From Nitrososphaeria archaeon (GTDB lineage: Archaea > Thermoproteota > Nitrososphaeria > Geothermarchaeales > JDFR-13), in assembly GCA_027078545.1 (NCBI GenBank), contig JALWXN010000004.1, forward strand, positions 480,001 to 544,000: 64,000 nt of DNA. Direction: 5' to 3'. The notes beneath the pieces are model-generated. The model saw only the letters and a list, made by a program, of their open reading frames with translations, ran no database searches and had not been told where the DNA came from. This document shows positions 747 to 50,233 of the stretch, in pieces. The translations under genes and the position numbers were made by a program. Position 1 is the first letter of the stretch, and each line of letters begins with the position of its first letter.

Positions 747-1797
747 CGGTCTCCACGATCCTATCCCTGAGGCCTAGGAAGAGGTCTAGGTTCTCATCCC
801 TATGTATCCTCGCCTTCCCAATCAAGACGCCGCTCACAAGTATAATAGCCTCCATACCCTCCCCCACAGATATCTTTAGGCTATACCTAGTCCTACCAAG
901 TACTCTGTAACCCAGGTTCTCAGCCGTCTCGCTAAGCCTGTCTAGGCTCAGCCCAGCCACCACCTTGTTCACTATGTATATGGCCGAGCCGTCCCTTGAG
1001 CAGCTCATCTCTGCCTCGGGTATGGATACCTCTACTGGCTCTCCCCTAGGCCTATCCCCACATACTGGGCATGTCTCCACCCTCTCTATATCGATCTTCT
1101 CGAAGCTCATCTGCCTCAGGTCTATGTATAGGAGCTTCCCCGCTAGGCTGGGCCTCTTCCCGGTTATTATTTCAACCGCCTGCTCCACCTCGAGGGCAGC
1201 CACCAACGTGGTTATGCTTGGATGTACACCTACGGTGGCGCATCTAGGTGCATCCTCATCACTGTATACTGGGTAGAAGCATTCGAGGCAGGGTGTCTCC
1301 CTGGGTATGATAGTGGTGATGTTACCGTACATCTCAATCCCCCCGGCGAAGACGTAGGGCTTCCCGAGCTTGACGGCGGCCCTATTGACTATATGCCTAG
1401 CCGCCATGCTGTCGAGGCCGTCAACCACTACATCTGCCTGCCCAACAATCTCCTCAGCATTACCTTGGTGTATAGGCTCGGGGTAGCTAACGGTCTCTAG
1501 CCAGGGGTTGAGCTCCCTAAGCCTCTCCTCAGCCGCCTCCACCTTCGGCACATCGACGTCTGACAACCTATACAGAGGCTCCCTATGGAGATCGGTGGCG
1601 GACACGACATCCCTATCCACTAGGACGAGTCTACCAACACCCATAGAGGCGAGAAGCATAGCCGCGGGGCTACCCAGACCACCAAGACCAATAACCGCCA
1701 CCGTCGATCGGGACAGCCTCTCCTGGCCCTCAAGCCCAATATCCTCAAGAACTATCTGACGGGAATACCTCTCAAGCCAGCCAACATCCATTACCAC
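730..1797 (-). CDS. moeB: ThiF/MoeB family E1-like adenylyltransferase with C-terminal extension
   Basis: RYSRQ, GLGGLG, DRDVV..TDLHR, CxxC (CLEC) and CPVC Zn motifs, catalytic Cys in RCATVGV. Confidence 0.9.
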   Translation of the reverse strand: MVMDVGWLERYSRQIVLEDIGLEGQERLSRSTVAVIGLGGLGSPAAMLLASMGVGRLVLVDRDVVSATDLHREPLYRLSDVDVPKVEAAEERLRELNPWLETVSYPEPIHQGNAEEIVGQADVVVDGLDSMAARHIVNRAAVKLGKPYVFAGGIEMYGNITTIIPRETPCLECFYPVYSDEDAPRCATVGVHPSITTLVAALEVEQAVEIITGKRPSLAGKLLYIDLRQMSFEKIDIERVETCPVCGDRPRGEPVEVSIPEAEMSCSRDGSAIYIVNKVVAGLSLDRLSETAENLGYRVLGRTRYSLKISVGEGMEAIILVSGVLIGKARIHRDENLDLFLGLRDRIVETAIHTR

Positions 1798-1855
1798 ATA
1801 ACCATATCAACAGCCAGAGTCATTAAAGCAATACACCACCCAAGTACTCCGACAC

Positions 1856-3762
1856 CAACAAACCCTTCCTAGTCTGGTTCTAACGGGACCCGGAGTTCCA
1901 AGAGCTGATACGAGACAAGATAGTTCTTTCAACCCTTCCTAGTCTGGTTCTAACCTAAGCGCTACATATGGCTAGACTACGACACCAAGAGCGAAGCTTT
2001 CAACCCTTCCTAGTCTGGTTCTAACTCAAAATCCTTATGCAATACCCAGTCTCTATACCGCCAACTGCTTTCAACCCTTCCTAGTCTGGTTCTAACTATA
2101 TGGCTAGGCGTGATCCTCATACTCGTATACATACTTTCAACCCTTCCTAGTCTGGTTCTAACACTGCTTCTCGGCAGCCTAGGGAGGTTGATGATGCTGT
2201 TGCTTTCAACCCTTCCTAGTCTGGTTCTAACCTTTTCACTCGTGAATGATGTGATCAGGAAGGAACTGACTTTCAACCCTTCCTAGTCTGGTTCTAACGA
2301 CTATGAGGTATTACTAGGACTCTACGTGGGCAACGAGTTCCTTTCAACCCTTCCTAGTCTGGTTCTAACGTTTCAGGCTCTGCGAAGTCGATCATGGTGA
2401 ATGCGGTCTGCTTTCAACCCTTCCTAGTCTGGTTCTAACTTAACTATGTCGGGATTCCTGACATAGCGTGAAGACTGAATCTTTCAACCCTTCCTAGTCT
2501 GGTTCTAACAATCGAGTGGAATCTCAAATGTCGATGTGAGATTCGTCCTTTCAACCCTTCCTAGTCTGGTTCTAACCAGTTTCGACGACTCCCGCCCAGC
2601 TGGGTGCAGATACATATGTACTTTCAACCCTTCCTAGTCTGGTTCTAACCTGAGGGCGGACTTGTCTAGGGGGAATTGGGCTGGATATCTTCTTTCAACC
2701 CTTCCTAGTCTGGTTCTAACACCTCTGGGGCGAGAACCGGGACTATAGACACTACCCCCCTTTCAACCCTTCCTAGTCTGGTTCTAACATTAAACCGCCG
2801 TAAAAGTGATAATGCAATGGGAATAGCCTCCTTTCAACCCTTCCTAGTCTGGTTCTAACGAGATAGAGATTACAGCGAGGCATATAGAGTATATTCTGCA
2901 CCTTTCAACCCTTCCTAGTCTGGTTCTAACAAATGTAAGGACAGTGGGCACTACTATCTTTACTTCGATAACTTTCAACCCTTCCTAGTCTGGTTCTAAC
3001 TATACTGATGTGAACTATCATAGACAGTACGGTAGCTTCCTTTCAACCCTTCCTAGTCTGGTTCTAACACAGACACATAGACAGTACAGGCGTGATTACT
3101 CTTGTCGTTCTTTCAACCCTTCCTAGTCTGGTTCTAACCCTTGGATCACTACTTCGGTAAGTGTCAATGCATCTTGGGCTTTCAACCCTTCCTAGTCTGG
3201 TTCTAACTATTCCAAGAGTCTAACATCATGATATATGTTTTCGATCTTTCAACCCTTCCTAGTCTGGTTCTAACACGCTTGAGGATTTCTTCGAGCTTTA
3301 TTTCAAGCACGAGATCTTTCAACCCTTCCTAGTCTGGTTCTAACATTATGAGAAGTTCATGTCGCAACTGAGGAAGTTATACGATCTTTCAACCCTTCCT
3401 AGTCTGGTTCTAACCTATGTTCATCTTCGTATCGCTCACCATTGCTATCCTAATTCTTTCAACCCTTCCTAGTCTGGTTCTAACTACGGGGTGAATGTGG
3501 AGGCCGCCATGAAGGAGTTTCTCTCTTTCAACCCTTCCTAGTCTGGTTCTAACCCCCCAAGGCGTCAATAGCGCTCCCGCCACACCCAAGACTTTCAACC
3601 CTTCCTAGTCTGGTTCTAACTGTATAGTCACGATTCGTGTTGATGATGAGACGCTTAGGATTATGACTTTCAACCCTTCCTAGTCTGGTTCTAACACCCT
3701 CATTGAGATTGTAGCACTCCTATCAGGGATCGACTTTCAACCCTTCCTAGTCTGGTTCTAAC
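1856..3762 (-). CRISPR. CRISPR array 1, repeat family A, about 28 repeats / 27 spacers (about 37-46 nt)
   Basis: Plus-strand repeat CTTTCAACCCTTCCTAGTCTGGTTCTAAC (29 nt); degenerate repeat at the left end and AT-rich leader on the right indicate minus-strand transcription. Confidence 0.99.
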
Positions 3763-3900
3763 CCGTGGGTTTTCTTCTGTTTCTATATAGGTATTTCTTG
3801 TGTTTCTCTTATTTAAGTTTTATGTGTGTCAAACCTCTGATCCTGCAGGGGGTTTATAAAGATGTGACGCAAAAAAGTATATAAACCCTTATAAAGGGGG
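3763..3900 (-). promoter_or_regulatory. CRISPR leader, family A
   Basis: Near-identical to 17935-18071 and 48156-48294; contains TTTATAAA and TTTATATA boxes. Confidence 0.92.
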
Positions 3901-3920
3901 TTAGGTGGGGAATCAGTTTG

Positions 3921-4532
3921 CTACTTTATTTTTCCGTCTATTATCTCTAGGGTTGTGTCTGCTATTCTGCGTATCTCTTCTCTGTGGCTTGCTATGATTA
4001 GTGTCTTCTCCCTATAGTTTTCCCTTAGGTGGTTTAGGAGTTTCTCCCTGTATCTCCTGTCTAGGTGGTTTAGGGGCTCGTCGAGGACTAGTATCTCCGG
4101 CTCTACTGCTAGGCCTCTCAGGATCGATACTAGTTTCTGGTATCCTGCCGAGAGGTTCTCGGCTGGTTCTTCTAGGATGTCTTCCAGCCCGAATATCCTG
4201 GCTATCTCAACTGCTCTTTCGAGGCTCTCCCCCCTTATCCTTAGTCCGTAGGCTATGTTCTCATATACACTCCTCCTGAGGATTACTGGCTTGTCATGGA
4301 TGTATACCGGCTTCTCCACATCTTCACGGTAGATGTCCCTGCCTCTGACTAGTATCCTACCGCTGAGAGGTGGTAATAGTCCTGATAACGCCTTGCATAG
4401 CGTGGTCTTCCCACTCCCGTTCTCACCCATCACAAGGGTTATCCCCCTCCCTATCTCCAGGTCTATCTCCCTTAGTATGGGTCTCCCGTTGTAGCCCAGC
4501 GATACCCTCACGAGCCGGATCATCTCCTCCAC
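3921..4532 (-). CDS. tupC: Tungstate ABC transporter ATPase
   Basis: Walker A GENGSGKT, LSAG signature, LVLDEP; in an operon with tupAB. Confidence 0.85.
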   Translation of the reverse strand: MEEMIRLVRVSLGYNGRPILREIDLEIGRGITLVMGENGSGKTTLCKALSGLLPPLSGRILVRGRDIYREDVEKPVYIHDKPVILRRSVYENIAYGLRIRGESLERAVEIARIFGLEDILEEPAENLSAGYQKLVSILRGLAVEPEILVLDEPLNHLDRRYREKLLNHLRENYREKTLIIASHREEIRRIADTTLEIIDGKIK

Positions 4533-8169: not shown

Positions 8170-8237
8170 CCCTTGAGGTATAGCTTGAAAAGATTCTCGG
8201 GCCTTGGCTACATAAAATATTAATAAAGGGTTATAGC

Positions 8238-16085: not shown

Positions 16086-17355
16086 GCGATTATGCGGTAA
16101 TACCGGGGCTAAAATTCCTACTTATGGGTGGCCTAAGGAGATGCTGTGTGTGAGGGTTGCCCGAAGAAGTGGGGATAGCCTCATACTAGCCCATTCCAAA
16201 TTTTTGTGGCGGTAGCTCCTCTTGGGCAGGGCTGCATATGTAGGGGTTGGATGCAATACATATGCATTAGCCCCCCAAGATTCAAGCCATACATATTCAA
16301 TTATCCCCCCATATCCGCCTGTCCAATGTCTACATATGACCATATCCCCCTCCAAGACATATTCTACCGCCCCCTCCCATAACTCTCACATATTACTCTA
16401 TCCCCTCTTCCCAGGCTAGTGTTGATAGAAGCGTCATGGAGGAGGGTTAAGGAGGGGTCTCTATATATTTGTGGGATAGAAGAGCCCCCTTATCCCTCTC
16501 GGGGAGGTATAGGAATATGTAGTCCCGCCATAGGGACATATTCTCATGGCCCCTCGGAGCTCTGGACATGGTGGAGACATTTAGAAGGTCCTGAATATTT
16601 ATCCCTTTTAAGGATCGGTTCTCCAAGCCGTTACAGTTATTGATAGATGGTTTATAACAGTTCCCTAGAGGGAGGGGTAAGCTATTATACGGGCTATGGC
16701 TCGTTTAGGGCTGACAATGGATAGATGAATACGTGGTGTACAGCCGAACATATATTTTTACATCCCCCTCCAAGACCCAGATCCTCAGCAAGCTCCACAA
16801 ACCTGCATGTGGGATCTGTGGAGATGAATGTGTAGGGCTGGGCAGGGGCTGTCTGGGACGCTTCACAACCCCCACGAACCATCATCGACAACCCAGCCCA
16901 GACGTGTGGAGGGGGGAGGGGGTGGAGATGAGGAGGTGTCGGGAACGCTAAACTCTCCACAAAGCCATGTTGAGTATTTGTGGAGCGGGTTCGGAAATGT
17001 GGGGGATAATGTCATATGTATATCGCTCCATAGACTAGGGCTAGATAGAGTGATAGAGTATAGCTAGGCAGAGTCATAGGACACAGGTAGATAGAGCCAT
17101 AGGGACAACCCAGCAACCACACCATAATATGTGTTGTCCTGTGTTGTTGTATTTGTTTGTGTGTTTGTGTGTTGTGTTTTTGTTCTGGCTTATATGGTTT
17201 TGATGTGTGTATGTGTGGTTTGTGTTGTTGTTTGGCGTCGCTATCTATAGCTGATCAACGGGGCTTGTAGGCTATGCTGATCTCATCTCCTCCCATGCAT
17301 CATAGCCATGTATCCTCATGACTAGGCCAATGTCTCGTCAATAGACACTTCATAA

Positions 17356-17625: not shown

Positions 17626-17934
17626 CTTTCAACCCTTCCTAGTCTGGTTCTAACCAGAGCCGTATATTGAAGACGAGCTCCGTAATCTTTGACTAGACTT
17701 TCAACCCTTCCTAGTCTGGTTTTAACTCTACCTCACTGAGCTCCACCGTGTCACCGACTGACAGGTCTTTCAACCCTTCCTAGTCTGGTTTTAACCAGGG
17801 AGGTGGTGGAGTAGTGGCGATTGAGGATCTTGTTAGCTTTCAACCCTTCCTAGTCTGGTTTTAACGGGCTCTATATCTGGACTTCTCATCGATGGATGTT
17901 GCGTTCTTTCAACCCTTCCTAGTCTGGTTTTAAC
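17626..17934 (-). CRISPR. CRISPR array 2, family A, 5 repeats / 4 spacers
   Basis: Same repeat as array 1; the four leader-proximal copies read GGTTTTAAC instead of GGTTCTAAC. Confidence 0.98.
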
Positions 17935-18071
17935 ACAGGATTTTCATTTGTTTCTATATAGATGTTTTTAGTGTTTCTCTTATTTAAGTTTTGTGTGTGT
18001 CATATCGCTGAAGTTGAGGGGGGTTTATAAAGATGTGACGCAGAAAAGTATATAAACCTTTATAAAGGGGG
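17935..18071 (-). promoter_or_regulatory. CRISPR leader, family A
   Basis: Homologous to 3763-3900. Confidence 0.9.
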
Positions 18072-18114
18072 TCTTGCTTCTTGGTGATCTTCCCTTCTTT
18101 TGCTATTCTTTGTC

Positions 18115-18768
18115 TCAGGATTTGTTGATGATTTCTAGTGCGATTTGATATATTTCTAGGTATACTTCTCCTAGGTTGGTAAGTCGGTATCCTCCTCCTC
18201 TTCCGGGTAGTTTTATGACTAGTCCTTGATCCTTGAGCTTCTTAGCGGTTGATCTGTTTTTGCTAGTTCCCTTTTTCTTTATGTTGTCTAGCTCGTCTCG
18301 GTATTTGACTATCCAGGTTGGGGACATGTTTTTTATGGGGTTGAAGATAGGTACTTCGACGTGTCTCGACACGTTCTCGCTATATACAAATATTTTGGCG
18401 ACTCTGGGATCCATCTGTCCGTATAGGGTGAGTATGGATACTTGGCTCCTAGTCCCTCCGGAGAGTAGGAGGACTATGGGGCCTTTATACTTATCATCGT
18501 TGTTCCAGGTTGCCTCTATCAGTTTCTTTATGGATGGGTATACGTCGGCGTCGTCGATATCGACTATTTTATACCTATATTGGTTAAAGGCCTGTTCTAT
18601 AGCGTCCTCCGTCTCCCTAACCTTTTGTAGCAGCCCCTCGTCCCTATCCTCACCTGTCTCTGGGCGTACAAATATTATCCTGTCTTCCTCTGTAAGGCTT
18701 ATTTCCTTGAACTTTGCAAGGACATTTGTAATGTTGAACCCGATGCTCACGATGTATATCGTCATCAA
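18115..18768 (-). CDS. csa3: Csa3-like CARF + wHTH CRISPR transcriptional regulator
   Basis: IVSIGFN, LLSGGTR CARF motifs; C-terminal KLKDQGLV...YRLTNLG wing; ends next to a CRISPR leader. Confidence 0.8.
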   Translation of the reverse strand: MMTIYIVSIGFNITNVLAKFKEISLTEEDRIIFVRPETGEDRDEGLLQKVRETEDAIEQAFNQYRYKIVDIDDADVYPSIKKLIEATWNNDDKYKGPIVLLLSGGTRSQVSILTLYGQMDPRVAKIFVYSENVSRHVEVPIFNPIKNMSPTWIVKYRDELDNIKKKGTSKNRSTAKKLKDQGLVIKLPGRGGGYRLTNLGEVYLEIYQIALEIINKS

Positions 18769-30141: not shown

Positions 30142-30244
30142 CACAGAAACCCAGGGAAAAACAGACAGCCAGAAATACATAAACAAAAACTTACCACATC
30201 TAAAACCCCTCTGGATACAAACATACCACCAATAAACACCCACC

Positions 30245-31522
30245 AAAACAAACCCTCATAGGTATGCTGGAACTCCTTCATCACTAGGCTTGCTAGATAC
30301 TCTGCCACTGTGTTTCAAACCCTCGTAGGTATGCTGGAACCAGTGCATTCCTGATGAGGTCGAGGAATGTCCTAGAGTTTCAAACCCTCGTAGGTATGCT
30401 GGAACGAGACCGACGAAGCCGTGTAGCGGGTGGAGACCCGCGTTTCAAACCCTCGTAGGTATGCTGGAACCCTGTCCAGAGTTCCCAGTATACGTTACTA
30501 TCCACTAGTTTCAAACCCTCGTAGGTATGCTGGAACTAAGGGTTAAGAAGATGCCAGTGGAGGAGGGCGGTCGTTTCAAACCCTCGTAGGTATGCTGGAA
30601 CCCACACCGCCACCACCACCGCCACCCAAGACGGGCTGTTTCAAACCCTCGTAGGTATGCTGGAACTGTCCTTGTCCTCTTGGGGGTGGTTGAAGTGACG
30701 ACTTGTTTCAAACCCTCGTAGGTATGCTGGAACACTCATTCCTGTCTCCCTCCAGGATTTCGACCGGTGGTTTCAAACCCTCGTAGGTATGCTGGAACGT
30801 CCTTGTTTTTGTCCTTGGGGGTGGTTGAAGTGTCGTGTTTCAAACCCTCGTAGGTATGCTGGAACCTAGAGCCGACCAGAACCTACAGAAAATCAGAGCC
30901 GCGTTTCAAACCCTCGTAGGTATGCTGGAACACTCATTCCTGTCTCCCTCCAGGATTTCGACCGGTGGTTTCAAACCCTCGTAGGTATGCTGGAACCCGA
31001 AGTAACCATCCCCTAGCCACCACAGATAGCTGAAGTTTCAAACCCTCGTAGGTATGCTGGAACTTTTTCAGACAAAATGGTGTTTTTGTCGGGTTTTTAG
31101 TTTCAAACCCTCGTAGGTATGCTGGAACGTGATAGCCATGACCAACGCCGACGTATTCGACGTCTCGTTTCAAACCCTCGTAGGTATGCTGGAACACGCA
31201 CTGTTAAGATTATATGTACGCAGTGCATTCTGTTTCAAACCCTCGTAGGTATGCTGGAACGTGATTCCATGGTGAAGCCTATTCACGACGACATAGTTTC
31301 AAACCCTCGTAGGTATGCTGGAACTCCGTGGGCCCGCCACCCTCCCTGGGCGGGCGGCTTGTTTCAAACCCTCGTAGGTATGCTGGAACGCGTCGTTCAC
31401 GCTGAACCTGGTGGACTGAGGTGAGAAGTTTCAAACCCTCGTAGGTATGCTGGAACCCTTGTTGATGATTTCCAGTCTTCTCAGTATGGAGTCGTTTCAA
31501 ACCCTCGTAGGTATGCTGGAAC
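30245..31522 (-). CRISPR. CRISPR array 3, family B, about 20 repeats / 19 spacers (35-38 nt)
   Basis: Plus-strand repeat GTTTCAAACCCTCGTAGGTATGCTGGAAC; degenerate left repeat; leader on the right. Confidence 0.99.
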
Positions 31523-31650
31523 CCGTGGTTTGTATAATATTTATTTGGTTTTCTTAGTTTTTAAGTTGTTTTTTAAGGATTGGGTGGCGACCACTAAGCT
31601 CAGCAGGAGGAGTATATAAAGCCGGTCACTAGGAGGGTTATGGATATCAT
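31523..31650 (-). promoter_or_regulatory. CRISPR leader, family B (back-to-back with the cas8b promoter region)
   Basis: Inverted homolog of 40830-40956; TTTATATA box. Confidence 0.88.
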
Positions 31651-31790
31651 TTACCTCATATGAGTATAGGATAATATTGTTTCTTTCTTTGTTTTCCATT
31701 TATTATTTCTCCTCTATCATTGTTATGTTTGCCTATGAATGAACGTGGATATACTGTAAGTAGTCCCTATCGTTATGGGGTGGTTAAGCT

Positions 31791-33839
31791 GTGATCGAGT
31801 CTCTAAGGATGATTGGTCTCTGGAACTTCTCCCGTTCTGGATATAAGACCCCTAGAGAACTAGTTATCAAAGGGAGAATCGAAGACCTAGACAAATTTAT
31901 AACCAGTAGGGTCCAGGGGGTGAAGAATAGGCAGATTATAGTCCTCATACTTGACCCGGCCAACCAGACGTTAAGAGTCGTTCCACGAGAGGTATCTAGG
32001 GAGGAGCTTATCAGACTCTCATTTATAGGTCATAGGAAGGCGAATATCCCTCAGGATGTCCTCACGGTCTTATCAATTAGCTACTTGACTGGCAAGGTAG
32101 ATATAAGGAACGGGAAAGTGAAGGAGAAGAGTCCATCCATACTCACGCTTATTCGTAATCTCAGGGATAGGCTTCAGAGGATTGATGAGGAGGTTTTTAA
32201 AGCCATATGGGAGGACGAGGCCATAAATGGAGTCAAGTTTGGGGAGATAATTGAGATGCTCGGTAAAGCGTTTGAAGATAAGCGGTTTAGGGACTGGCTT
32301 AGGAGAGAGGTCTCCACCAATGAGACAGTAACCGGGTGTAAGAAGAACTGTGTATACACATTAGCGATTAAGCTAGAGAGTGGGGAGGTAGTGGAACTGG
32401 CCACAACTAGGCCCTATAAAAGATATCTGCTGGCTACAGAGATCTATCCAATAATCTCACCTAGAATCAACATTGTGAATGGCTACTGCTATGTATGCAA
32501 CGAGAGGCGTATGGTGTTGACAGAGCCGATATTCCCACAGGCCTCACTACTAAAGATCTACACACTTGACAAGATCAGCTTTGTACAGGGGTTAGCGAGA
32601 GATCCCAAAGGTAAGATGAGAAACTTCTCCATATGTCCAGAGTGTAACTTCCTAATTGTTGATGGCTTGAGGTATGTTGAGAATGAATATACCGTCAGAA
32701 AGGTAGTCGTTGCTAGACACCGGGGTGGAGGCAAAGAGGGCGATAAACGTGATAATAACCTTTATGTAAATATGTATATAGTTCCAGCCGTTTCAAACAA
32801 GAAGGTGGGGGTAGATCTCCTAGGTATTAATGAGGAGCTTAAAACTCTTTTCACTTGGGAGGATTGGAATTATTTGCAGAAATTCCTGAATAAGGTAAGA
32901 GTAAAGCTGTCCCGGATTGCTGGGTCCATGTACTATATACATCTGATATTCGGGGGGACTAAGGCAAACAGTAGTGACTTTACATATGTGGGGTCGGTAC
33001 AGGATGTACCAGTATTTGACATGATTCGACTTGCTCAAATAGTTTCTGAGGTTAAACGCGAGAGTGGCTTCAAAGCAACAGATGCCCTTCTAAGGAACTT
33101 CCCAGTAGGGACATTGAAAAATATACTAAGAGTAGATCCGAAGGAAGAGGAAGTTAGTGTCCGTGATTTCCTATATCTAATGCGGGTACTTATGGTTAGA
33201 GAGCCATTTAATGATCATTTTCTATATATTTGGGCAGGGAAGACTGCTAAAGCATTGAGATTTAGATTGAATTGGTCTAAGACTAAGAATGCCGAAAAAA
33301 TATTCATTGATACGATACTAAAGTATTTGTTTCTGTTAAAGATTATTTATAAAATACTTGGAAAGAATAATATGGGTAGCATGTCTTCTAGCAATGCTAG
33401 CCAAGCCTCCCCCACTGATCAGGTTCTTGAGGAGACGCTGAAGTTACTTGAGGATGGAGAGCTGGCCAAGTTCATAAAATTTCTGGGGCTGGACAGAGCA
33501 AAGGCTGCATTATTCCTTCTTGGTGTCCTAGTGGCTGAGATAGGATGTGAACAGGCTAAGAAGGGAGATAACAGAAAAGCAGTTCTTAACAAACTTAAAT
33601 ACCCTGGCATGGATAGGTATGATGTAGTTGACCTTGCCAATTACATACCATTCGGTCTAAGGCACTACAGAATCTTTGGAGATTATGAGACTCTGTATTC
33701 AGCGGCAAAGAGACTTCTAGATATGGGTATTGAAGATCTCGGGACACCGGAAGAGAATCTTTTCTATATACTGAGCGGATATGCATATCAGACGTATCGC
33801 CTAAATAGTGGGGGAGGATGTGGTGAGGTGGAAGGTTAA
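31791..33839 (+). CDS. cas8b: Type I-B large subunit Cas8b (Csh1/TM1802-like)
   Basis: CYVC...CPEC Zn motifs, IYTLDK..F, FLLGVL, FYILSGY C-terminus; first gene of the Cascade operon. Confidence 0.88.
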   Translation: MIESLRMIGLWNFSRSGYKTPRELVIKGRIEDLDKFITSRVQGVKNRQIIVLILDPANQTLRVVPREVSREELIRLSFIGHRKANIPQDVLTVLSISYLTGKVDIRNGKVKEKSPSILTLIRNLRDRLQRIDEEVFKAIWEDEAINGVKFGEIIEMLGKAFEDKRFRDWLRREVSTNETVTGCKKNCVYTLAIKLESGEVVELATTRPYKRYLLATEIYPIISPRINIVNGYCYVCNERRMVLTEPIFPQASLLKIYTLDKISFVQGLARDPKGKMRNFSICPECNFLIVDGLRYVENEYTVRKVVVARHRGGGKEGDKRDNNLYVNMYIVPAVSNKKVGVDLLGINEELKTLFTWEDWNYLQKFLNKVRVKLSRIAGSMYYIHLIFGGTKANSSDFTYVGSVQDVPVFDMIRLAQIVSEVKRESGFKATDALLRNFPVGTLKNILRVDPKEEEVSVRDFLYLMRVLMVREPFNDHFLYIWAGKTAKALRFRLNWSKTKNAEKIFIDTILKYLFLLKIIYKILGKNNMGSMSSSNASQASPTDQVLEETLKLLEDGELAKFIKFLGLDRAKAALFLLGVLVAEIGCEQAKKGDNRKAVLNKLKYPGMDRYDVVDLANYIPFGLRHYRIFGDYETLYSAAKRLLDMGIEDLGTPEENLFYILSGYAYQTYRLNSGGGCGEVEG

Positions 33840-40055: not shown

Positions 40056-40823
40056 CTATCCATCGAGAATCTTGAAGAGGCCGAAGCCCTGTGGATTCTT
40101 GGAGCCCAGCCCCGCCTCATATACAACCCTTATCAGGCCCAGTGACCCCCTGAGCCTATACAGGCCCTTCCAGCCCTTGATGACCGTCCCCTTGTAATAC
40201 GTCACGACCTCCTTGGGCCTCTTAATAGGAGTGATCTCTAGGTACATCTCGCCGGGGTCGCCGTGGAGTATGCTATACTTCCTCCTAGCATTCATGTTTA
40301 TAAGCTCGGTGAACTCCCTCTCCACCGGGTTGTAGTAATATGTCTTCCTCCTACCGTCGGGTGTCTGGAGGGTTGAATATACGGTGACTGGGCTGAGCAT
40401 CCTAATCCTATACTCAGCATCCTCCCTGTCATCCCCTCCCCATCTACGGTTCTCTACATGGATACTGACAACCCTGTAGCTCGAGCCACCTATCCTGACA
40501 AACCTATTCCTAGTCAGGCCAGTGACAAACTCGTCGATAAAGGTCTTTATAGGCGAGGATATGTAGAGAGACATCTCCCCCACGGGGATACCCACGCCCC
40601 CAGCCCTGTCCCACTTGACACCCCCAAGGATATCCGAGAAGCAGAAGAGCTTAAAACTCCTCCCACCAACCCTGAAGCCCTCCTGGTGGAGGAAACGGCT
40701 CAGCTCGGGGGAGACCACCCGGTAGACCATGCTCTGCACAGCATATCTATAGTGGAGAGGGATGGGATCATCCCCAACAAACACAACCCTAACCCTAACC
40801 ACAGACAGACTAATCACACACAC
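40056..40823 (-). CDS. cas6: Cas6 crRNA endoribonuclease
   Basis: LHQEG, FKLFCFS, LSP, C-terminal GLGSKNPQGFG loop. Confidence 0.96.
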   Translation of the reverse strand: MCVISLSVVRVRVVFVGDDPIPLHYRYAVQSMVYRVVSPELSRFLHQEGFRVGGRSFKLFCFSDILGGVKWDRAGGVGIPVGEMSLYISSPIKTFIDEFVTGLTRNRFVRIGGSSYRVVSIHVENRRWGGDDREDAEYRIRMLSPVTVYSTLQTPDGRRKTYYYNPVEREFTELINMNARRKYSILHGDPGEMYLEITPIKRPKEVVTYYKGTVIKGWKGLYRLRGSLGLIRVVYEAGLGSKNPQGFGLFKILDG

Positions 40824-40829
40824 GAGAAA

Positions 40830-40956
40830 TAAACCACAAAACCTACAAAGCGACCAGGTTTATATACCTCCTCCGCTGGGCTTGGCGGTCGCTACCCAAT
40901 CCTTAAAAAACCACTTAAAACCTAAGAAAACAGAATAAAATTAATACAAACCCAGA
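40830..40956 (+). promoter_or_regulatory. CRISPR leader, family B (back-to-back with the cas6 start)
   Basis: Homologous to the reverse complement of 31523-31650. Confidence 0.88.
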
Positions 40957-41906
40957 GTTCCAGCATACCTACGAGGGTTCGAAACCTACACCAACTACAC
41001 CTGTGAGTATCCACCACTTATAGTTCCAGCATACCTACGAGGGTTCGAAACAATATGGCTTGAAAAATACGGCGATAAAGATGGACTATGTTCCAGCATA
41101 CCTACGAGGGTTCGAAACCACCAAGTAGGATAGCACAGCTGATAAACACTAGGCGTTCCAGCATACCTACGAGGGTTCGAAACAAGTTGTAATAGGAATA
41201 GGTTTGGTGGGTATATAAGTGTTCCAGCATACCTACGAGGGTTCGAAACGTATGTCGTCTAGGAATATCACTGGTATATCCTCGAGGTTCCAGCATACCT
41301 ACGAGGGTTCGAAACGGTAGTTAGCCGTTAGGATGAACGACACCTTCTCATGTTCCAGCATACCTACGAGGGTTCGAAACCACTAGCCACGACCCTTTCT
41401 TCTTCCTCTCTTCCCAGTTCCAGCATACCTACGAGGGTTCGAAACTATCTGTCCTCACCAACATTCTCCATATATTCCAGCGGTTCCAGCATACCTACGA
41501 GGGTTCGAAACCTCCTAGTGGTCGGGGTGCTGGCTGGCCTAGTATACGAGTTCCAGCATACCTACGAGGGTTCGAAACGTGTGAGGACACCGCCCACATA
41601 GTCCCCCAATGTCTCGTTCCAGCATACCTACGAGGGTTCGAAACCTCGACATAGTGATCACCCCAGGTGGACTTTTTCTTGTTCCAGCATACCTACGAGG
41701 GTTCGAAACTGTCAGTGTTTTTCTCGTCTATCTCTAGTAGCTCGTAGTTCCAGCATACCTACGAGGGTTCGAAACTATGGTAAAAACGGGGTGATGAGAT
41801 GCCAGTAGTCGGTTCCAGCATACCTACGAGGGTTCGAAACTGAATATCTCCTTCAGCTTCTCAACGGCCTCGTCGGGGTTCCAGCATACCTATGAGGGTT
41901 CGGAGT
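40957..41906 (+). CRISPR. CRISPR array 4, family B variant, 15 repeats / 14 spacers
   Basis: Repeat GTTCCAGCATACCTACGAGGGTTCGAAAC; last copy degenerate. Confidence 0.99.
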
Positions 41907-42047
41907 GGGTGTTGTCTGTGTTTTGTTCTTGGTATGTTTGTGGTGGTTTGGTTAGATGTGCTTTTGCTATGAGTGAGGTATTTTTGTTTGGATGTTGGGA
42001 TTTATTGGTTGTGTTCTCTTTGGTCTCCACGGTCTATGTTGCTGTGT

Positions 42048-42404
42048 CTACTTGTTGCAGTATGTTTTCCGTATTTTGTAGTCGTCTCTGAGGAATACTC
42101 CGTCTCGGCATATCTCGTCTGCTATTGGGTCTCCCTTTGTGAAGAGCCTCTTAAGCTCCCCGGGGTTTAGGGGTATTACTTCGTAGTTGGGTGGTGGGTC
42201 TATCTTCCTGAGCCTCTCTGGGGGCCTACCCTTGAATACTTCTGATATGAGGACGATGTCGACGTCGCTCCACTCGTTGAAGTCTCCCCTGGCGTATGAC
42301 CCGATCAGGACCGCTGTACATTTGAAGCCTAGGCCCCGTGCCCACTCCATCGCCTCGGCGATGACCCTACTCCTTATTTCCCGCCTCTCCTCAATGATCC
42401 CCAT
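42048..42404 (-). CDS. Minimal nucleotidyltransferase (MNT)
   Basis: LIGSYARGD...SDVDI. Confidence 0.92.
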   Translation of the reverse strand: MGIIEERREIRSRVIAEAMEWARGLGFKCTAVLIGSYARGDFNEWSDVDIVLISEVFKGRPPERLRKIDPPPNYEVIPLNPGELKRLFTKGDPIADEICRDGVFLRDDYKIRKTYCNK

Positions 42405-42790
42405 GTCTCTTCCACCCACTTGAGGAGTCTCCAGGCCTGTGTCAACGCCTCTCTACAGTCCGCCTCGGTGTAGTAGTCCATCGGCGTTCCCTCGCCCCAG
42501 ACGTCTGGATACCTCGTGGGGATATACAGCTTATCCAGCATCCTAGCAGCCTCAAAAACCTCCGTGGGAACCTCAATGTATTCGGATAATTGTTTAAGCA
42601 ATATAGTTATGCTATGCCCACCCCTCCTAAACCCCAACCCATACATCAACGCCTTTACAGCGAACCCAGCCGCCTGCTGAGCCTTGAAACAAGCCCAGTT
42701 ATAAAACTCATTCTCCAGGTCTGAAGTTGCAGACTCGAGAGTCTCCCTAGCTGTAGAAATCCATCTACTAAACTCATCATTATCCAGCAT
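42374..42790 (-). CDS. HEPN domain protein (HEPN-MNT pair)
   Basis: YNWACF.AQQA...AVKA, GHSI, LD..YIPTRYPD. Confidence 0.92.
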   Translation of the reverse strand: MLDNDEFSRWISTARETLESATSDLENEFYNWACFKAQQAAGFAVKALMYGLGFRRGGHSITILLKQLSEYIEVPTEVFEAARMLDKLYIPTRYPDVWGEGTPMDYYTEADCREALTQAWRLLKWVEETWGSLRRGGK

Positions 42791-42907
42791 ACCACTCTAA
42801 CATACCAACCTACCTATCACAGTAATATACTCAACTGCGCAAGCATTCCACAAAACATCACACCAAGACCTCGACTCACAGACACTCAAGCATCTACCAT
42901 ACACCAC

Positions 42908-45900
42908 ATTCCAACCCTTCCTAGTCTGGTTTTAACCCTCGATGAACTTCCTTATCTTCTCTACGAGATTCTTCTTTCAACCCTTCCTAGTCTGGTTCTA
43001 ACAGTGAAGATGAGTGATAATAGAGTGAAGTATAAGATCCCACTTTCAACCCTTCCTAGTCTGGTTCTAACTCGATCCTTCCTTCCAGCTCTTCGATTCT
43101 TTCGATGAGTTCTTTCAACCCTTCCTAGTCTGGTTCTAACTAAGAGAATAGACATTGGCAGTCATCATATTGACTTGTTGTCTTTCAACCCTTCCTAGTC
43201 TGGTTCTAACTGGATGCTTCTCTGGAGACCCCTCCACAAACCGGGTCTCCTTTCAACCCTTCCTAGTCTGGTTCTAACGGATTACCGACAAACTCACTAC
43301 CTTCCTTTCTCGGCTTCTTTCAACCCTTCCTAGTCTGGTTCTAACATCCTTAGCATGCTCAACATACTCAAGAGCAAGTGCACTTTCAACCCTTCCTAGT
43401 CTGGTTCTAACATACTCCGTAGAGTCCTACCAGGCGGAGTAACAATAGTGCTTTCAACCCTTCCTAGTCTGGTTCTAACTCAAAAGGAACATGAGGCGGT
43501 TGTATATGAGTTGTTTCACTTTCAACCCTTCCTAGTCTGGTTCTAACTTGAAGAAGGGTTAGAAGAGGCGACAATCGACGTATTCCTTTCAACCCTTCCT
43601 AGTCTGGTTCTAACTTTGGGATGTCCAGTGCCAGATGAGGAAAGCATGGGAATCGCCTTTCAACCCTTCCTAGTCTGGTTCTAACCAAGAAAGCATTTTC
43701 GACGCACGATAGTTCTCATGCCCACGCTTTCAACCCTTCCTAGTCTGGTTCTAACGCTTTGACTATTACCATGAAGCGTCGTAAATCCTCTTCTCTTTCA
43801 ACCCTTCCTAGTCTGGTTCTAACGCTCTCTTGACACCTTGGGATGCCTACAAGGACTTGTTAGCTTTCAACCCTTCCTAGTCTGGTTCTAACGTGATCTC
43901 GATCGTGTCTGCGATGATGATGTCTGAGTACTTTCAACCCTTCCTAGTCTGGTTCTAACCCTCGTGGATGGCTGGGTATATCCTGACGGGCAGGGCGTCT
44001 GTACTTTCAACCCTTCCTAGTCTGGTTCTAACACAGAGCCGATCAGGAAGACCGCTAGACCAACCCCGCCACCATCTTTCAACCCTTCCTAGTCTGGTTC
44101 TAACCCAGACCCCGCCCCTACCCAGTCCTCTTAGTTAGTTTACTTTCAACCCTTCCTAGTCTGGTTCTAACTCTTGATGTCAAGGAAAACGAGAGCATAC
44201 TGGTAAATACAATAAACTTTCAACCCTTCCTAGTCTGGTTCTAACCGGTATTTCCCTTCCACCAGTGCCGTTTCGAGTATGTCCTTTCAACCCTTCCTAG
44301 TCTGGTTCTAACTCTGAGCGACCCTCCTGCCGTTGGCTCATGGACATAGCTCCTTTCAACCCTTCCTAGTCTGGTTCTAACTTGTTGAAGCACTCTTGAC
44401 ATAGATTGTTACTATACCCTTCTTTCAACCCTTCCTAGTCTGGTTCTAACCGAACAACCCCCAAAACCCAACCGCCGAAAAAACCAAGAATTCTTTCAAC
44501 CCTTCCTAGTCTGGTTCTAACTCATTACCCTCTTGGAGTCGCTGAATAATGCCAGACCGACTCTTTCAACCCTTCCTAGTCTGGTTCTAACCGAGGTCAT
44601 AACTGAGGTATCGCTCACAGCGGGTGAGATCGCTTTCAACCCTTCCTAGTCTGGTTCTAACGCCAGGGAGGGGGCGACATTCATGTCGATAGTTCATATG
44701 CACCTTTCAACCCTTCCTAGTCTGGTTCTAACTGTCCATAGAAAATTTAACTAGGAAGATAGATAGATTACTACTTTCAACCCTTCCTAGTCTGGTTCTA
44801 ACCTTAGATGACATGATAGAGGAAACTATTCAGCGGTTGGCTTTCAACCCTTCCTAGTCTGGTTCTAACGGGAACTCACTAGGGCGGAAATACCTGTCCA
44901 CCGCATCATGCTTTCAACCCTTCCTAGTCTGGTTCTAACTATCATTTTCCCGACAAATAAGCCGCTTATCATCAATGCTGCTTTCAACCCTTCCTAGTCT
45001 GGTTCTAACAGTCTGATTACATACTTACAGGTATGCTAGTATCGGGGGTTGACTTTCAACCCTTCCTAGTCTGGTTCTAACATACGATTTCGATCGATGT
45101 ATGTCAGTAGCTCGTCCAGTTCTTTCAACCCTTCCTAGTCTGGTTCTAACATCGAATACGGCGTCCGTGATGGTCGGAAACCAGAACGCCCCTTTCAACC
45201 CTTCCTAGTCTGGTTCTAACTTCAGTACCCGCTTCAATTGTTTTGAGTTTCAACAAAACTGACTTTCAACCCTTCCTAGTCTGGTTCTAACGGTACTTAG
45301 AGTGGGGTGGCGAATCTATAAAAACTACAGAACTTTCAACCCTTCCTAGTCTGGTTCTAACTATGGGATTTGAAGGTTGTTTGGAGGGCTGGGTTGGTTT
45401 TACTTTCAACCCTTCCTAGTCTGGTTCTAACTTGGATGCGTAGGTCAGCTACAAAAGGGTTTCATATTTTGACTTTCAACCCTTCCTAGTCTGGTTCTAA
45501 CACTGTTAATCGGCAAGGTTGCTGAAATTTATTGCAATTATAAGCTTTCAACCCTTCCTAGTCTGGTTCTAACACTCATATCGACATCGTGCTGTTGACA
45601 CCAGTCCTTGAACTCTTTCAACCCTTCCTAGTCTGGTTCTAACTAATTAGTCCCCCGAACTCATCTACTATCCAGTAAACGTTTCTTTCAACCCTTCCTA
45701 GTCTGGTTCTAACTTTTAAACTCCTCTCCAGTATTGCCGAGGTCGCTATCCCATCTTTCAACCCTTCCTAGTCTGGTTCTAACATCTAGAAGACCAAGAC
45801 CAGAACCTCCTGTAGAGAAGCCCTTTCAACCCTTCCTAGTCTGGTTCTAACGTCTGCCTCACCACCATGTATTATTTCTACCTGACTTTTGTCTTTCAAC

Positions 45901-48155
45901 CCTTCCTAGTCTGGTTCTAACGATAAGCTCTTCAACGAGTCAAATGTTCCCGAGTAGTTCCTTTCAACCCTTCCTAGTCTGGTTCTAACGCGTGAGACCC
46001 TGCTCCCCTGTCTCCACGACCTGACATATCTCTTTCAACCCTTCCTAGTCTGGTTCTAACACGTTTGCTCGGGCTCTTCCAGCCAGACCCGGCCGTATCG
46101 TCTTTCAACCCTTCCTAGTCTGGTTCTAACGTGATATGATACCTAACACCCGTAGCTGATTTTCAGTTGTCCTTTCAACCCTTCCTAGTCTGGTTCTAAC
46201 CGCCAGTTCCCCACTCGACATCCCGAACCGACCCCCCAGGGGAGCTTTCAACCCTTCCTAGTCTGGTTCTAACAAGATGATGTTGTTGAAACTCGGCAAT
46301 GCGAACTTGTTGTTCTTTCAACCCTTCCTAGTCTGGTTCTAACTACCTTGATTCAGACCTTGTCCTATATACTCGTGTACAAGGCTTTCAACCCTTCCTA
46401 GTCTGGTTCTAACGTAAACTTGTATGAATCTCACGACTACACCACTTGGAATCTTTCAACCCTTCCTAGTCTGGTTCTAACTACCACTTTTCTGGCTACC
46501 TCTCACCTGAAACCTTGTTCCAGCTTTCAACCCTTCCTAGTCTGGTTCTAACACAGTTTCTCAGTTGACATGAGTCTGTAGGTGGCTGACTAGGCTTTCA
46601 ACCCTTCCTAGTCTGGTTCTAACATGACCCCCGGTACGAATATCCTGTATCTACCATTTGGATCCTTTCAACCCTTCCTAGTCTGGTTCTAACTCCCTAT
46701 ATACCTTATATAAGGGTAATAGGGTCTATCATATACTTTCAACCCTTCCTAGTCTGGTTCTAACGAGCTATACTTCTTCAGAAAAATCAACGCAAAGACT
46801 TTCTACCTTTCAACCCTTCCTAGTCTGGTTCTAACCACACTTCTGCGACTAACCGGGAGGAAGAGCCACGAATTAGCTTTCAACCCTTCCTAGTCTGGTT
46901 CTAACTTTAGTCTTCTGGTTCACCCTGATTGTCAGTTGGTAGTCCTTTCAACCCTTCCTAGTCTGGTTCTAACGTTTACGCCTTTATCCCATCCCATTTA
47001 TTCTCACCTAAACCTTTCAACCCTTCCTAGTCTGGTTCTAACTCAACCCAAACAACCCAGGAAAACCCGCACCCCAAAAATCTTTCAACCCTTCCTAGTC
47101 TGGTTCTAACTGGTCAGGGTAGGTGGCGGTGGAGCGAAGGCAGAGGATATCCTTTCAACCCTTCCTAGTCTGGTTCTAACATTGAAATGTACCTAAACCG
47201 TGTAGGCGATAAAGAGAACTCCTTTCAACCCTTCCTAGTCTGGTTCTAACCTTGATTTTGAGGGATCGATATGCTACCAAAAAGATTCAGAATCTTTCAA
47301 CCCTTCCTAGTCTGGTTCTAACTTGGCGGGGGTGATGGGATGAAGTTGCTTAGACTTGGTGTGGTCTCTTTCAACCCTTCCTAGTCTGGTTCTAACTGCT
47401 CGACCTTCAGAGCCTGATCGAGCCTGGGCAGAAGGTGCTTTCAACCCTTCCTAGTCTGGTTCTAACGTAAGACTAAGAACATCACATTGACTGGTCAACA
47501 GTTACTTTCAACCCTTCCTAGTCTGGTTCTAACTGATACTGGGATGGCGAGCGACAACTCAGCCCCGATCTTCCTTTCAACCCTTCCTAGTCTGGTTCTA
47601 ACGTATTCTGGGCGGTGAGCATGGTTTCTAGATAGATCCTACCTTTCAACCCTTCCTAGTCTGGTTCTAACCCAACCTCCTTCTGATAGCATCTTTAACA
47701 AATTCAGCTACTTTCAACCCTTCCTAGTCTGGTTCTAACCTGGTTCTGCTGCTTTCGGGCCTTTTCCTGGGGATGTTCTTCTTTCAACCCTTCCTAGTCT
47801 GGTTCTAACTAACTATGGCGGGATTCCTGACATAACGTGAAGACTGAATCTTTCAACCCTTCCTAGTCTGGTTCTAACATTTCAATCAGTTCAAAAACAC
47901 GATGCGTAAAGTGTACACTTTCAACCCTTCCTAGTCTGGTTCTAACGGGAGCTCGAAGTCCTGCGAAGATGAGTTCCCGACCATCACTTTCAACCCTTCC
48001 TAGTCTGGTTCTAACTCTGAAGACCCGTCACCAGCACCAGGATCAGTACCGCTGCCCTTTCAACCCTTCCTAGTCTGGTTCTAACCAAGGAGGTGGATGG
48101 CCTTCGTCTACTCCTCTACACGAATCCTTTCAACCCTTCCTAGTCTGGTTCTAAC
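42908..48155 (-). CRISPR. CRISPR array 5, family A, about 76 repeats / 75 spacers
   Basis: Same repeat as array 1; degenerate left repeat; leader on the right. Confidence 0.99.
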
Positions 48156-48294
48156 CCGTGGCTTTTCTTTTGTTTCTACATAGATGTTTTTGGTGTTTCT
48201 ATTATTTAAGTTTTATGTGTGTCAAACCTCTGATCCTGCAGGGGGTTTATAAAGATGTGACGCAGAAAAGTATATAAACCCTTATAAAGGGGGG
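48156..48294 (-). promoter_or_regulatory. CRISPR leader, family A
   Basis: Near-identical to 3763-3900. Confidence 0.92.
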
Positions 48295-48325
48295 TCTTGG
48301 ATCTAGGCTTCTTCTGTCGTTGTCG

Positions 48326-50233
48326 CTATGTGTCTTTGGTGTTCTGTGTGGTTTTTTCTTCTTTGTCCTCGTCCTTGTCTTTGATCCCTAGTTTTTCTTT
48401 GATCCATTTGATTTTTAGTTCTAGTCTTTTTTTCCTGTGTCTTGGCTGGGCTAGGACGCTGTGTCCGTGGCTTCCCTTTAGGAAGACTAGTAGTAGGGAC
48501 TCTTTCTTATGGGTTCTGAGGGCTAGGTGCATTGCCAGTGCCTGGTCTATGTAGCAGCGGTAGTCCTCTAGGCTGTGGATTATGAGTACTGGTGTCTTCA
48601 CCCTGTGGGCGTGGTAGGCGGGGCTCTTCTCCACATATTTCTCCAGGTTGTCTAGCGGTGTCCCGCCTATCTGGTCTGGGTTGAACCAGTATCCTATGTC
48701 TGATGCCCAGTAGTCTGCTATCCAGTCGGCTATCCCGTTCTCGCTCACGGCTGCCTTGAATAGGTCTGTCTGGGTTATTATCCAGTTGGTCATGTAGCCG
48801 CCGTAGCTTATCCCGGTGACGGCTGTCTTCTCCCTGTCGACTGGGTATCTCTCCATGACCTCCTCGACGAACCTCATTATCTGTCTATAGTCGATCTCTC
48901 CGTAGCGCCCCCTTATATCGGCGAACTCCTCTGTGTAGCCCTCGCTCCCATGTGGGTTGCAATATGCAACCAGGAAGCCCTGGCTAGCCATTAGCTGCAT
49001 CTCTGGGTGGAAGTAGTAGCCGTACATCCCCTTTGGCCCGCCGTGGATATAGAGTATCAATGGGTATGGCCCATCCCCATCAGGCTTGATGACCCAGCCG
49101 TCGATCTCCTCCCCCTCGGCCTCTATGGTGAGCTTCTCCGGCCTATATAGCTTGGCCTCCTCCACGAGCCATGTGTTGAGGCTCGTGACCCTCTCCTCCA
49201 CCTCCTCGCCATACCTGTAGATCTCTGGCGGCTCTGTCGGGCTGGACATGACGTAGTATAGGTGTCTACCCCTTGCCGATGCCTGTATAACGTATTTCTC
49301 ACCCCTTACGAGGTCCTCTATCCTGCCGCCCCTATACCTCGCCAGGACGGACATGCCGGCGTCGCTGTAGGTTATGACTGGGTCCCCCATGTAGTCGCCG
49401 TGGATCCCGGTTATATCCCTGTCTAGGATGCCGCAGGAGAGGCATTCAGGCATGTTGTTGTATAGCATGTATAGCCGTCCATGGCTTGATATCCCTATCT
49501 CGAAGCGGTGTCCGAGGAAGTATAGCTTCTCGCCGATGGATCTCGGCCTGTATATATGCATGTCGCTGAGGATCTCCCTACTCTCCCCGGTCTTGGGATC
49601 GAGGACCTTAAGCTTGTTCTTGAGGGGGTTTATCCAGTCCTCATATATCGTGTAGTATATCCTGCCCATGTGTACCTCGTATTCGAGGACTCCGTGCTCC
49701 TCCTCCGTGAGCCTCTTCACGTGGCCCGACTCAACCTCCACCCTGTATAGCTGGTCCCTCCTACCGGCTATTATCCCCATCCTGTCGAACCAGAGTGGGG
49801 CGTTATCGGTGTAGACGTAGTCGCCGTCCGGGTCGTAGCCGTCGGCCTCCTCCCCAGCCTGGACGATCAGTGTCTTACCGTCGAGCCACTCCACACCGGA
49901 GACCCCGTGTTTGAACCATGCCACGAGCCTGGGCTCGCCGCCCCTACCCACCACGTAGACGCCGTTACCCTCCTTCTTATCCTCATCCCTCCTGCTTATG
50001 AATGCTAGGAGCTCACCGTCCGGGCTCCATGAGGGAGCGGCGTCGTCCTTCCCCTGGAAATAGGTCTCGCCCCCGTCTCTCCATAGGATCCTTATCTCCC
50101 CCTGGTACTTGTTGTCCTCTGGCCTGGGGACTGATACTGTGTAGGCTAGGTCGCCCTTAGCCGAGACATCTAGTAGGCCTATCCTGTTTAGTCGTATAAC
50201 GTCGTCTATCTCGAGCCTCCTCATACCCCTCAT
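48326..50233 (-). CDS. S9 family acylaminoacyl peptidase
   Basis: WSPDG propeller, IHGGP, GISYGG nucleophile, HSLEDYRC, GSHG. Confidence 0.93.
   Translation of the reverse strand: MRGMRRLEIDDVIRLNRIGLLDVSAKGDLAYTVSVPRPEDNKYQGEIRILWRDGGETYFQGKDDAAPSWSPDGELLAFISRRDEDKKEGNGVYVVGRGGEPRLVAWFKHGVSGVEWLDGKTLIVQAGEEADGYDPDGDYVYTDNAPLWFDRMGIIAGRRDQLYRVEVESGHVKRLTEEEHGVLEYEVHMGRIYYTIYEDWINPLKNKLKVLDPKTGESREILSDMHIYRPRSIGEKLYFLGHRFEIGISSHGRLYMLYNNMPECLSCGILDRDITGIHGDYMGDPVITYSDAGMSVLARYRGGRIEDLVRGEKYVIQASARGRHLYYVMSSPTEPPEIYRYGEEVEERVTSLNTWLVEEAKLYRPEKLTIEAEGEEIDGWVIKPDGDGPYPLILYIHGGPKGMYGYYFHPEMQLMASQGFLVAYCNPHGSEGYTEEFADIRGRYGEIDYRQIMRFVEEVMERYPVDREKTAVTGISYGGYMTNWIITQTDLFKAAVSENGIADWIADYWASDIGYWFNPDQIGGTPLDNLEKYVEKSPAYHAHRVKTPVLIIHSLEDYRCYIDQALAMHLALRTHKKESLLLVFLKGSHGHSVLAQPRHRKKRLELKIKWIKEKLGIKDKDEDKEEKTTQNTKDT

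Follow-up and report, generated by a model that had tools for sequence, protein, structure and literature searches.

CRISPR arrays and their flanks

The window considered here (64,000 nucleotides, C4:480,001-544,000, part of the 1.24-Mb assembly of a Nitrososphaeria archaeon from hydrothermal-vent samples) contains five of the genome's seven clustered regularly interspaced short palindromic repeat (CRISPR) arrays, and these five belong to two repeat families. Around them the plus strand tends to flip from A+C-rich on the left to G+T-rich on the right. The scar so formed is a real and strong positional substitution bias, spread over several lineages, wider than CRISPR, and not the mark of a replication origin; its cause is argued here, tentatively, to be homologous recombination. 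Skew is given as K = (G+T-A-C)/length, computed on the plus strand, or as residual K, which is corrected for codon position, gene strand and the 30-kb regional mean. Genes were called with a home-made caller, and some starts and small genes are uncertain. Positions are those of the window unless prefixed C4.

Array 1 (1855-3762, minus strand, 28 repeats) has a degenerate repeat at its left end and a conserved leader at its right, from which its orientation was deduced. The A+C-rich flank on its trailer side (1560-1854, residual -0.34) extends into the 5′ end of a minus-strand moeB/ThiF gene (730-1791; ThiF by Pfam), whose outward strand at 4-fold degenerate sites has a K of +0.42 over codons 1 to 60 and of -0.02 elsewhere. 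The G+T-rich right flank (3763-4200; residual +0.26, third codon positions +0.41) comprises the leader and the 3′ end of a minus-strand ABC ATPase gene (3921-4523; ABC_tran). Array 2 (17626-17934, minus strand) has 5 repeats. Its right flank (17935-18400), made up of the leader and the 3′ end of a minus-strand open reading frame (ORF), is G+T-rich (residual +0.29, third positions +0.58). To its left K is +0.14, and hence that side is not A+C-rich; a low-GC island nearby has a G+T tract at its right edge (16960-17270, peak +0.30 at C4:496,967), and this may be the reason.

Array 3 (30245-31522, minus strand, 20 repeats) represents the second repeat family. The flank on its trailer side (29950-30244; residual -0.39, third positions -0.35) reaches over the 5′ end of an ORF on the minus strand that has no Pfam match, and the skew of its leader flank (31523-31800; residual +0.26, third positions -0.05) stops short of the neighbouring cas8b-type gene (Cas_TM1802). 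Array 4 (40957-41905, 15 repeats) is on the plus strand, opposite in orientation to array 3, and so has its leader on the left, where the A+C-rich flank (40650-40956; residual -0.32, third positions -0.14) includes the 5′ end of cas6 (Cas6); its trailer flank (41906-42210; residual +0.49, third positions +0.37) includes the 3′ end of a nucleotidyltransferase gene. Array 5 (42907-48155, minus strand) has 76 repeats. On its trailer side is the 5′ end of a HEPN gene (42600-42906, residual -0.32), and on its leader side the 3′ end of an S9 peptidase gene (48156-48900; residual +0.39, third positions +0.60).

The preliminary description of this DNA had reported A+C richness left of arrays 1, 3, 4 and 5 and G+T richness right of all five, and this holds on recomputation. 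On the left, K is -0.39 (1700-1860), -0.43 (30000-30250), -0.38 (40750-40950) and -0.34 (42600-42910). On the right of arrays 1 to 5 it is +0.26 (3763-4150), +0.30 (17935-18400), +0.26 (31523-31760), +0.53 (41907-42110) and +0.34 (48156-48550). Five leaders are homologous copies and non-coding leader counts are therefore not independent, but the codon signal in the unrelated neighbouring genes is.

Skew tracts like those of arrays also bracket a low-GC gene block without an array in the cas region (57.5-66.5 kb). The A+C tract at its left edge (57300-57600) has a K of -0.30 and peaks at -0.33, and its G+T partner (C4:546,560-546,900, peak +0.44) is outside the window. Just outside, too, are a sixth array (C4:548212-549994) and a second cas1 (C4:556946-557791). 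Within the arrays themselves, array 3 contains an exactly duplicated repeat-spacer unit (30705-30798 and 30903-30996), and arrays 1 and 5 hold near-identical spacers with about 2 differences (2440-2480 and 47810-47850), which may have been exchanged between the arrays or acquired twice, from variant targets.

Strength, range and silent-site character of the flips

Thirteen of the 14 flanks of the genome's seven arrays are within the extreme 0.8% of the chromosome's skew (300-bp windows). The residual flips of arrays 1 to 7 are 0.60, 0.20, 0.65, 0.81, 0.70, 0.62 and 0.70, at least 0.60 in six of the seven. Ordinary gene boundaries do not behave in this way: among 1,087 control boundaries of any orientation none reaches 0.5 and 3 reach 0.4. 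The chromosome-wide windows and the gene-boundary controls exclude chance as the cause, and the same controls rule out a general promoter or operon-boundary effect. Sharp up-jumps number 44 overlapping windows versus 3 for down-jumps. Weaker flips had been suggested for some promoters. That suggestion is not borne out for promoters as a class (the averages are about 0.01-0.05 for divergent promoters and for tRNA genes), and near the tRNA-Met promoter, the example given, there is indeed a weak skew on the left (-0.19), but it is one-sided, the right being at 0.00.

As had been proposed, the skew reaches the codons of unrelated neighbours and then fades. On the outward strand the third-position residual is 0.49-0.51 at 100-300 bp, 0.21 at 300-400 bp, 0.13 at 400-600 bp and about 0 beyond. 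It is also, as proposed, present on both leader and trailer sides, and at equal strength (0.31 and 0.30). In the non-coding flanks GC skew and TA skew are both +0.37; at 4-fold sites they are +0.10 and +0.61. The outward strand at 4-fold sites (A.09, C.26, G.28, T.37) is an exaggerated version of the leading strand of this genome (A.15, C.26, G.27, T.33).

Synonymous sites of unrelated genes, whichever way these point, carry the bias most strongly, and G is preferred over A at two-fold sites within the skewed flanks. Since it is found both in genes directed at arrays and in genes directed away from them, in this and other lineages, a gene-orientation artefact is ruled out. These features also bear on the idea that selection maintains the bias, for instance as U-rich terminators or insulators on outward strands, or as leader motifs. 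Trailers are T-rich on the transcribed strand and leaders are conserved, as that idea would have it, but the synonymous sites of unrelated genes, the two-fold sites included, speak against it, and a T-rich sense strand in outward genes such as moeB would be expected to favour termination of the gene's own transcript. Selection is accordingly judged a quite improbable cause.

Comparison with orthologs separates gene from position. The genes moeB, argG and the S9 peptidase gene have an array-proximal gradient where they adjoin arrays, and no gradient in array-less orthologs of the same genus. For the S9 peptidase, sense-strand K at 4-fold sites is -0.86 over the final 80 codons and -0.37 over the remainder; the same two segments of an array-less ortholog have +0.38 and +0.22. 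Most array-less homologs lack the codon skew, a similar gradient being present in 2 of 22 array-less S9 and argG homologs. Neither of the two outcomes by which the preliminary description would have been contradicted, equal flips at ordinary boundaries and the same codon skew away from arrays, was seen. The gene moeB has had an array next to it ever since this lineage parted from a species 21% divergent. An assembly artefact is ruled out, since the skew beside array 1 is shared by a third species and by the sister species, which was rebuilt for this comparison (about 89% identical to this genome, and collinear). The skew goes with the position, not with the gene, and the flips behave like a footprint of substitutions that matches the genome's own leading strand in polarity and base composition.

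The arrays are not ordinary replication origins

An A+C to G+T flip of this polarity is that usually left by bidirectional origins, and the preliminary description had linked the two. The likeness holds for polarity and composition and fails for range. The chromosome has a skew of the replication type, whose cumulative third-position curve has its minimum at 193.8k and its maximum at 802.9k. (Contig C1 joins reverse-complemented ahead of the start of C4, and one contig of the sister species spans the junction. Contigs C2, C3 and C5-C11 are short and of deviating GC; C3 and C9 resemble 23S fragments different from the 23S of C4 and are probably contaminants. The analysis drew on assembled contigs, and each of these has a flat depth.) At 2-20 kb to either side, third-position skew goes from 0.11 to 0.07 across the array cluster and from -0.02 to -0.03 across array 7, that is, without a step. 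At the 16S gene it steps from -0.06 to +0.19, and the best single breakpoint stays there when the 16S flanks are masked; there is a second, smaller step near 133k. The lack of a step at the arrays shows that they are not ordinary origins.

Homologs of cdc6 are at C4:150k, 284k and 74k. Origin recognition box (ORB)-like motifs are found at 151.5k and none at the arrays. Those at C4:151400-151650 are inverted and upstream of a cdc6 gene (150150-151346), and this segment is likely the canonical oriC. The skew minimum, however, is at the 16S gene, 42 kb from the cdc6/ORB origin, and the solitary 16S is a possible main initiation site. That arrays are true bidirectional origins agrees with the polarity of the genome's own origin-type flip. 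Set against the missing step, the missing motifs and the position of array 7 beside the cumulative-skew maximum, which is the inferred terminus, it is very improbable indeed. Models in which the arrays are fork barriers or termini were discarded, as on reasoning they predict the opposite polarity.

Two chromosome-wide gradients may be recorded here. Silent divergence to the sister species is about 0.17 around the skew minimum and increases to about 0.32 towards the terminus; the amplitude of the skew is not flat but declines gradually over the same interval.

The same scar without CRISPR

The strongest flip of the genome is not at an array. It surrounds the solitary 16S gene (C4:194063-195561), with -0.38 on one side and +0.72 on the other. 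Assembly breaks within 16S had been considered as evidence for a homing intron; in a mesophilic relative the break falls at an identical position of the model, and the present 16S is intronless, so this was dismissed.

Insertion/deletion (indel) sites, defined solely by synteny breaks versus the sister species, carry the scar as well. All nine flip in the same direction (0.10-0.50, mean 0.31), compared with a mean of 0.02 ± 0.11 at 279 intergenic controls (p about 1e-6). They include sites at which this genome keeps only a 42-82 bp empty site, and their skew decays like that of array flanks. The scar is not, therefore, CRISPR-specific: 16S and strain-variable islands have it too. Other kinds of site lack it. 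There is no flip at 25 tRNA loci away from islands (mean 0.05), at the 23S block (0.02) or the 23S of two other genomes, at the locus of a 490-nt RNA, or, locally, at the cdc6/ORB origin. The 3′ neighbour of 23S is conserved in another genus, which implies that the 23S locus is old.

Spacer integration takes place at the leader end of an array. Repair following Cas1-Cas2 integration had been put forward as a writer of the skew, and arrays do give the most consistent signal. Yet the skew of trailer flanks, which are as much as 5 kb from the leader, equals that of leader flanks, even across the 5.2-kb array, and 16S and the non-CRISPR islands, with all nine indel sites, have the scar. Of the causes considered this is the least probable. 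What survives of the proposal that arrays are sites of DNA synthesis that leave a mutational footprint is the footprint itself, for which local recombination-primed synthesis is a viable source; the origin, the repair of spacer integration and the CRISPR specificity do not survive.

Other lineages and NucS

The survey of other lineages used raw flips at cas1 loci from about 30 Thermoproteota genomes. The mean is 0.40 in the organism's own family and 0.46 in the family of Pyrobaculum calidifontis. It is 0.44 and 0.34 in two further families, which we take to be those of Thermofilum and Pyrolobus, and 0.89 in one Desulfurococcales-related genome; in Fervidicoccus and Methanosuratincola it is about zero. 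Wherever both gene orientations were sampled the flips are present in both. In P. calidifontis, of 20 segments taken outside the cas1 locus and totalling 400 kb, only 2 have jumps above 0.4. The linked rRNA operons of P. calidifontis and of three other genomes flip at both ends.

The gene for the mismatch endonuclease NucS/EndoMS is at C4:127.5k in this genome. It was found here and in the scar-bearing lineages searched, and five genomes with little or no scar gave no match or a weak one. NucS/EndoMS cuts G/T, G/G and T/T mismatches and not A/C, A/A or C/C (PMC4838380; also PMC6159521), and Haloferax needs NucS for gene conversion (PMC11276520).

Transcription and local priming

Outward transcription offers one explanation for flips at RNA-producing loci. 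Untranslated RNA from arrays, rRNA genes and AT-rich islands would form R-loops and expose the outward non-template strand to C>T and A>G changes; in arrays the RNA would come from sense read-through together with cryptic antisense promoters, and cryptic promoters inside arrays have been described (PMC10883916). The polarity is right, the 16S here and the linked rRNA operons of four other genomes flip, and the asymmetry fitted to the composition is dominated by transitions. However, a model with transitions alone fits poorly (deviance 42 at the arrays), and its rejection, in a fit that ignores codon selection, weakens plain deamination as the source. The 23S, though long in place, the 25 tRNA loci and the 490-nt RNA should have the scar and do not. 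Sense strands are in fact A+C-biased at 4-fold sites (K -0.09 to -0.14 relative to the region), sense skew does not follow how conserved a gene is (rho -0.05, p 0.09), read-through zones average -0.01, and leader and trailer sides are equal. On balance transcription is an unlikely cause of the scar.

Local priming of replication, by which short outward forks or re-primed stalled forks would copy about 500 bp outwards on each side with no extra mutation or exchange, has about the same standing and is likewise doubtful. It would explain why the composition is that of the leading strand, only stronger, and why between-species divergence is not raised in array flanks; 16S does have a chromosome-scale step, and recombination-dependent initiation exists in Thermococcus (PMC11005403). 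Against this, the forks would have to stop after about 500 bp on both sides, arrays have no long-range step, the ORB origin has no local flip, and the empty indel sites are left unexplained.

Recombination as a proposed source of the scar

Recurrent exchange between lineages is most simply the trait that arrays, islands and 16S have in common, and that for the most part tRNA genes and 23S lack. We therefore favour, tentatively and with a confidence that stops short of an even chance, the explanation that loci repeatedly exchanged or repaired by homologous recombination have acquired the flips at their edges as substitution footprints. It builds on what is directly observed, namely the location, range, symmetry and silent-site nature of the flips, their occurrence at variable sites without CRISPR, and the lack of a long-range step; the recombination, and the biased step in it, are what we infer.

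At the boundary of a cassette the invading 3′ ends would point inward and the gap-filling strands would run outward, on both sides and over a few hundred bases. Such a fixed geometry leads to mirror symmetry over the length of a repair tract, and a strand-biased step during exchange could then write a mirror-image skew that has the polarity of an origin and is local only. The step may be leading-strand-like repair synthesis, in which G/T wobble errors would be under-corrected on the outward strand. It may instead be correction of heteroduplex by NucS/EndoMS, which would strip G and T from the inward, invading strand. On either account the outcome would be A+C to the left and G+T to the right. 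The classical alternative of 5′ resection and deamination of the exposed 3′ tail was set aside, since it should give the opposite polarity.

Comparison with the sister species is informative here. In 15 of 17 indel flanks silent sites have diverged less than in the surrounding region (mean ratio 0.77). Several of the lowest dips in divergence along the genome likewise border islands or 16S (0.04-0.05 versus 0.15), the one at 16S being on its left side. This is as expected from recent allele exchange. Four sister-species strains differ more from one another near array 1: silent polymorphism is 16/177 up to 600 bp from it and 151/3403 farther away, a difference of about 2-fold. The deepest valleys (C4:421500-422900 and 1115000-1117400) are beside variable islands, with silent divergence of 0.01-0.06 versus about 0.2, and are a probable sign of recent gene flow between the two species. 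Of the differences from the sister species at 4-fold sites, transitions make up 39% and A/C plus G/T transversions another 39%.

Several points weigh against recombination as the source, or against NucS as its agent. Skewed composition alone can lower divergence, and linked sites are not independent. The two array loci that this genome has in common with the sister species have no lowered divergence (0.28/0.35 versus 0.28, and 0.38 versus 0.32), and divergence is lowered in the right flank of the 23S/tRNA block, a flank without a flip. A strong flip at C4:357900-358900 (G+T residual +0.51) has no array, indel or RNA gene; it is inside two minus-strand genes without a Pfam match, at C4:358.0k, and is conserved in the sister species. 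Cas1-locus flips are weak in genomes that we presume to be Sulfolobaceae, though nucS is present, and in Caldarchaeum the array flanks are inverted or mixed. The crude equilibrium fit gives a C-to-G factor of 0.45, opposite to the prediction for a G:G-cutting NucS, in a fit that ignores codon selection and in which the transversion involved is not identifiable from composition alone. The distribution of NucS is confounded by phylogeny and probably by growth temperature. Transcription accounts equally well for the flips at both ends of the linked rRNA operons in Pyrobaculum. Lastly, recombination of whole arrays is rare in bacteria (PMC4524480).

Some details of these and other sites deserve mention. 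At two cas1 loci of Caldarchaeum about 3.5 kb to the left of the array is G+T-rich, and in one of them the right side is A+C-rich; codon bias specific to the genes may underlie the inverted polarity. Polarity is normal at the 16S of that genome. In the present genome two sharp intergenic flips are found near the inferred terminus (C4:786900 and 794200).

Relation to known asymmetries

GRINS, described in 2021 (PMC8256042), are sub-kilobase tracts in which GC and TA skew are correlated on the G+T/A+C axis and the genes are recoded. The array flanks here likewise have intense GC and TA skews of the same sign. GRINS are tied to gene conversion, and CRISPR, archaea and NucS go unmentioned in that paper (PMC8256042). 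They are common in Streptomyces, which use NucS (PMC11109965). They differ from the present scar in being duplicated tracts inside paralogous modules of bacteria; here the flanks are single-copy, archaeal and mirror-symmetric about a cassette. GRINS are marked by duplication at more than 80% identity elsewhere in the cluster, and in this genome only the leaders, of about 170 bp, repeat, the skewed coding flanks being unrelated single-copy genes. The scar is not a member of the GRINS.

Replication-origin skew has the same polarity, and a 4-fold composition nearly that of the replichores here, but the scar fades in about 600 bp, has no long-range step and has no ORBs at arrays. Transcription-associated mutational asymmetry involves C>T and A>G on the non-template strand, and is bidirectional around vertebrate promoters. 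It too is a transition-dominated mirror image around a transcribed locus; the scar differs in being absent from promoters in general, from tRNA genes and from 23S, and sense strands here lean to A+C. Clusters of mutations associated with indels, reportedly with an increased rate (Tian et al. 2008), are likewise within a few hundred bases of polymorphic indels. What is seen here is instead a strand-polar composition with lower divergence between species. A 2026 preprint (10.64898/2026.07.20.739571) concerns purine/pyrimidine asymmetry inside repeats, on a different axis and scale.

The substrate rule of NucS/EndoMS (PMC4838380, PMC6159521, PMC7736090) is on the keto/amino axis of the scar, and no positional or strand-polar footprint of NucS was reported in the literature found. 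A 2026 survey of archaeal skews (PMC12999951) holds that strand-specific action of NucS in replication is not possible; CRISPR does not come up in it. Nor was a description of skewed CRISPR-array flanks encountered in the literature searched, which covered few subscription journals; GRINS come closest. Added here are the test on indel sites defined by synteny, the negative results for 23S and tRNA genes, and the contrast between arrays, which have no long-range step, and 16S, which has one.

A further and more speculative proposal, which we hold to be unlikely but worth stating, joins these strands. NucS/EndoMS acting on heteroduplex of fixed polarity would cause a strand-polar G+T/A+C-biased gene conversion that marks every recurrent recombination boundary in these archaea. 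The same chemistry would explain GRINS, and hot spots could be mapped from a single genome. Intermediates at 16S may in addition launch the main replication forks and so outweigh the ORB origin.

Implications

Whatever its cause, the scar recodes neighbouring proteins at their ends according to where they lie, and both the prediction of origins and codon-based tests will be misled by it in the vicinity of arrays and rRNA genes. That the skew minimum is at 16S, not at the ORB/cdc6 origin, bears on the mix of origin-dependent and recombination-dependent initiation in archaea. If the recombination explanation is true, there would be a second, strand-polar form of biased conversion besides the GC-biased one, and with it a testable route to the unexplained GRINS. 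Base composition alone would then map DNA exchange in archaea of hot environments, including at loci from which the cassette has since been lost.

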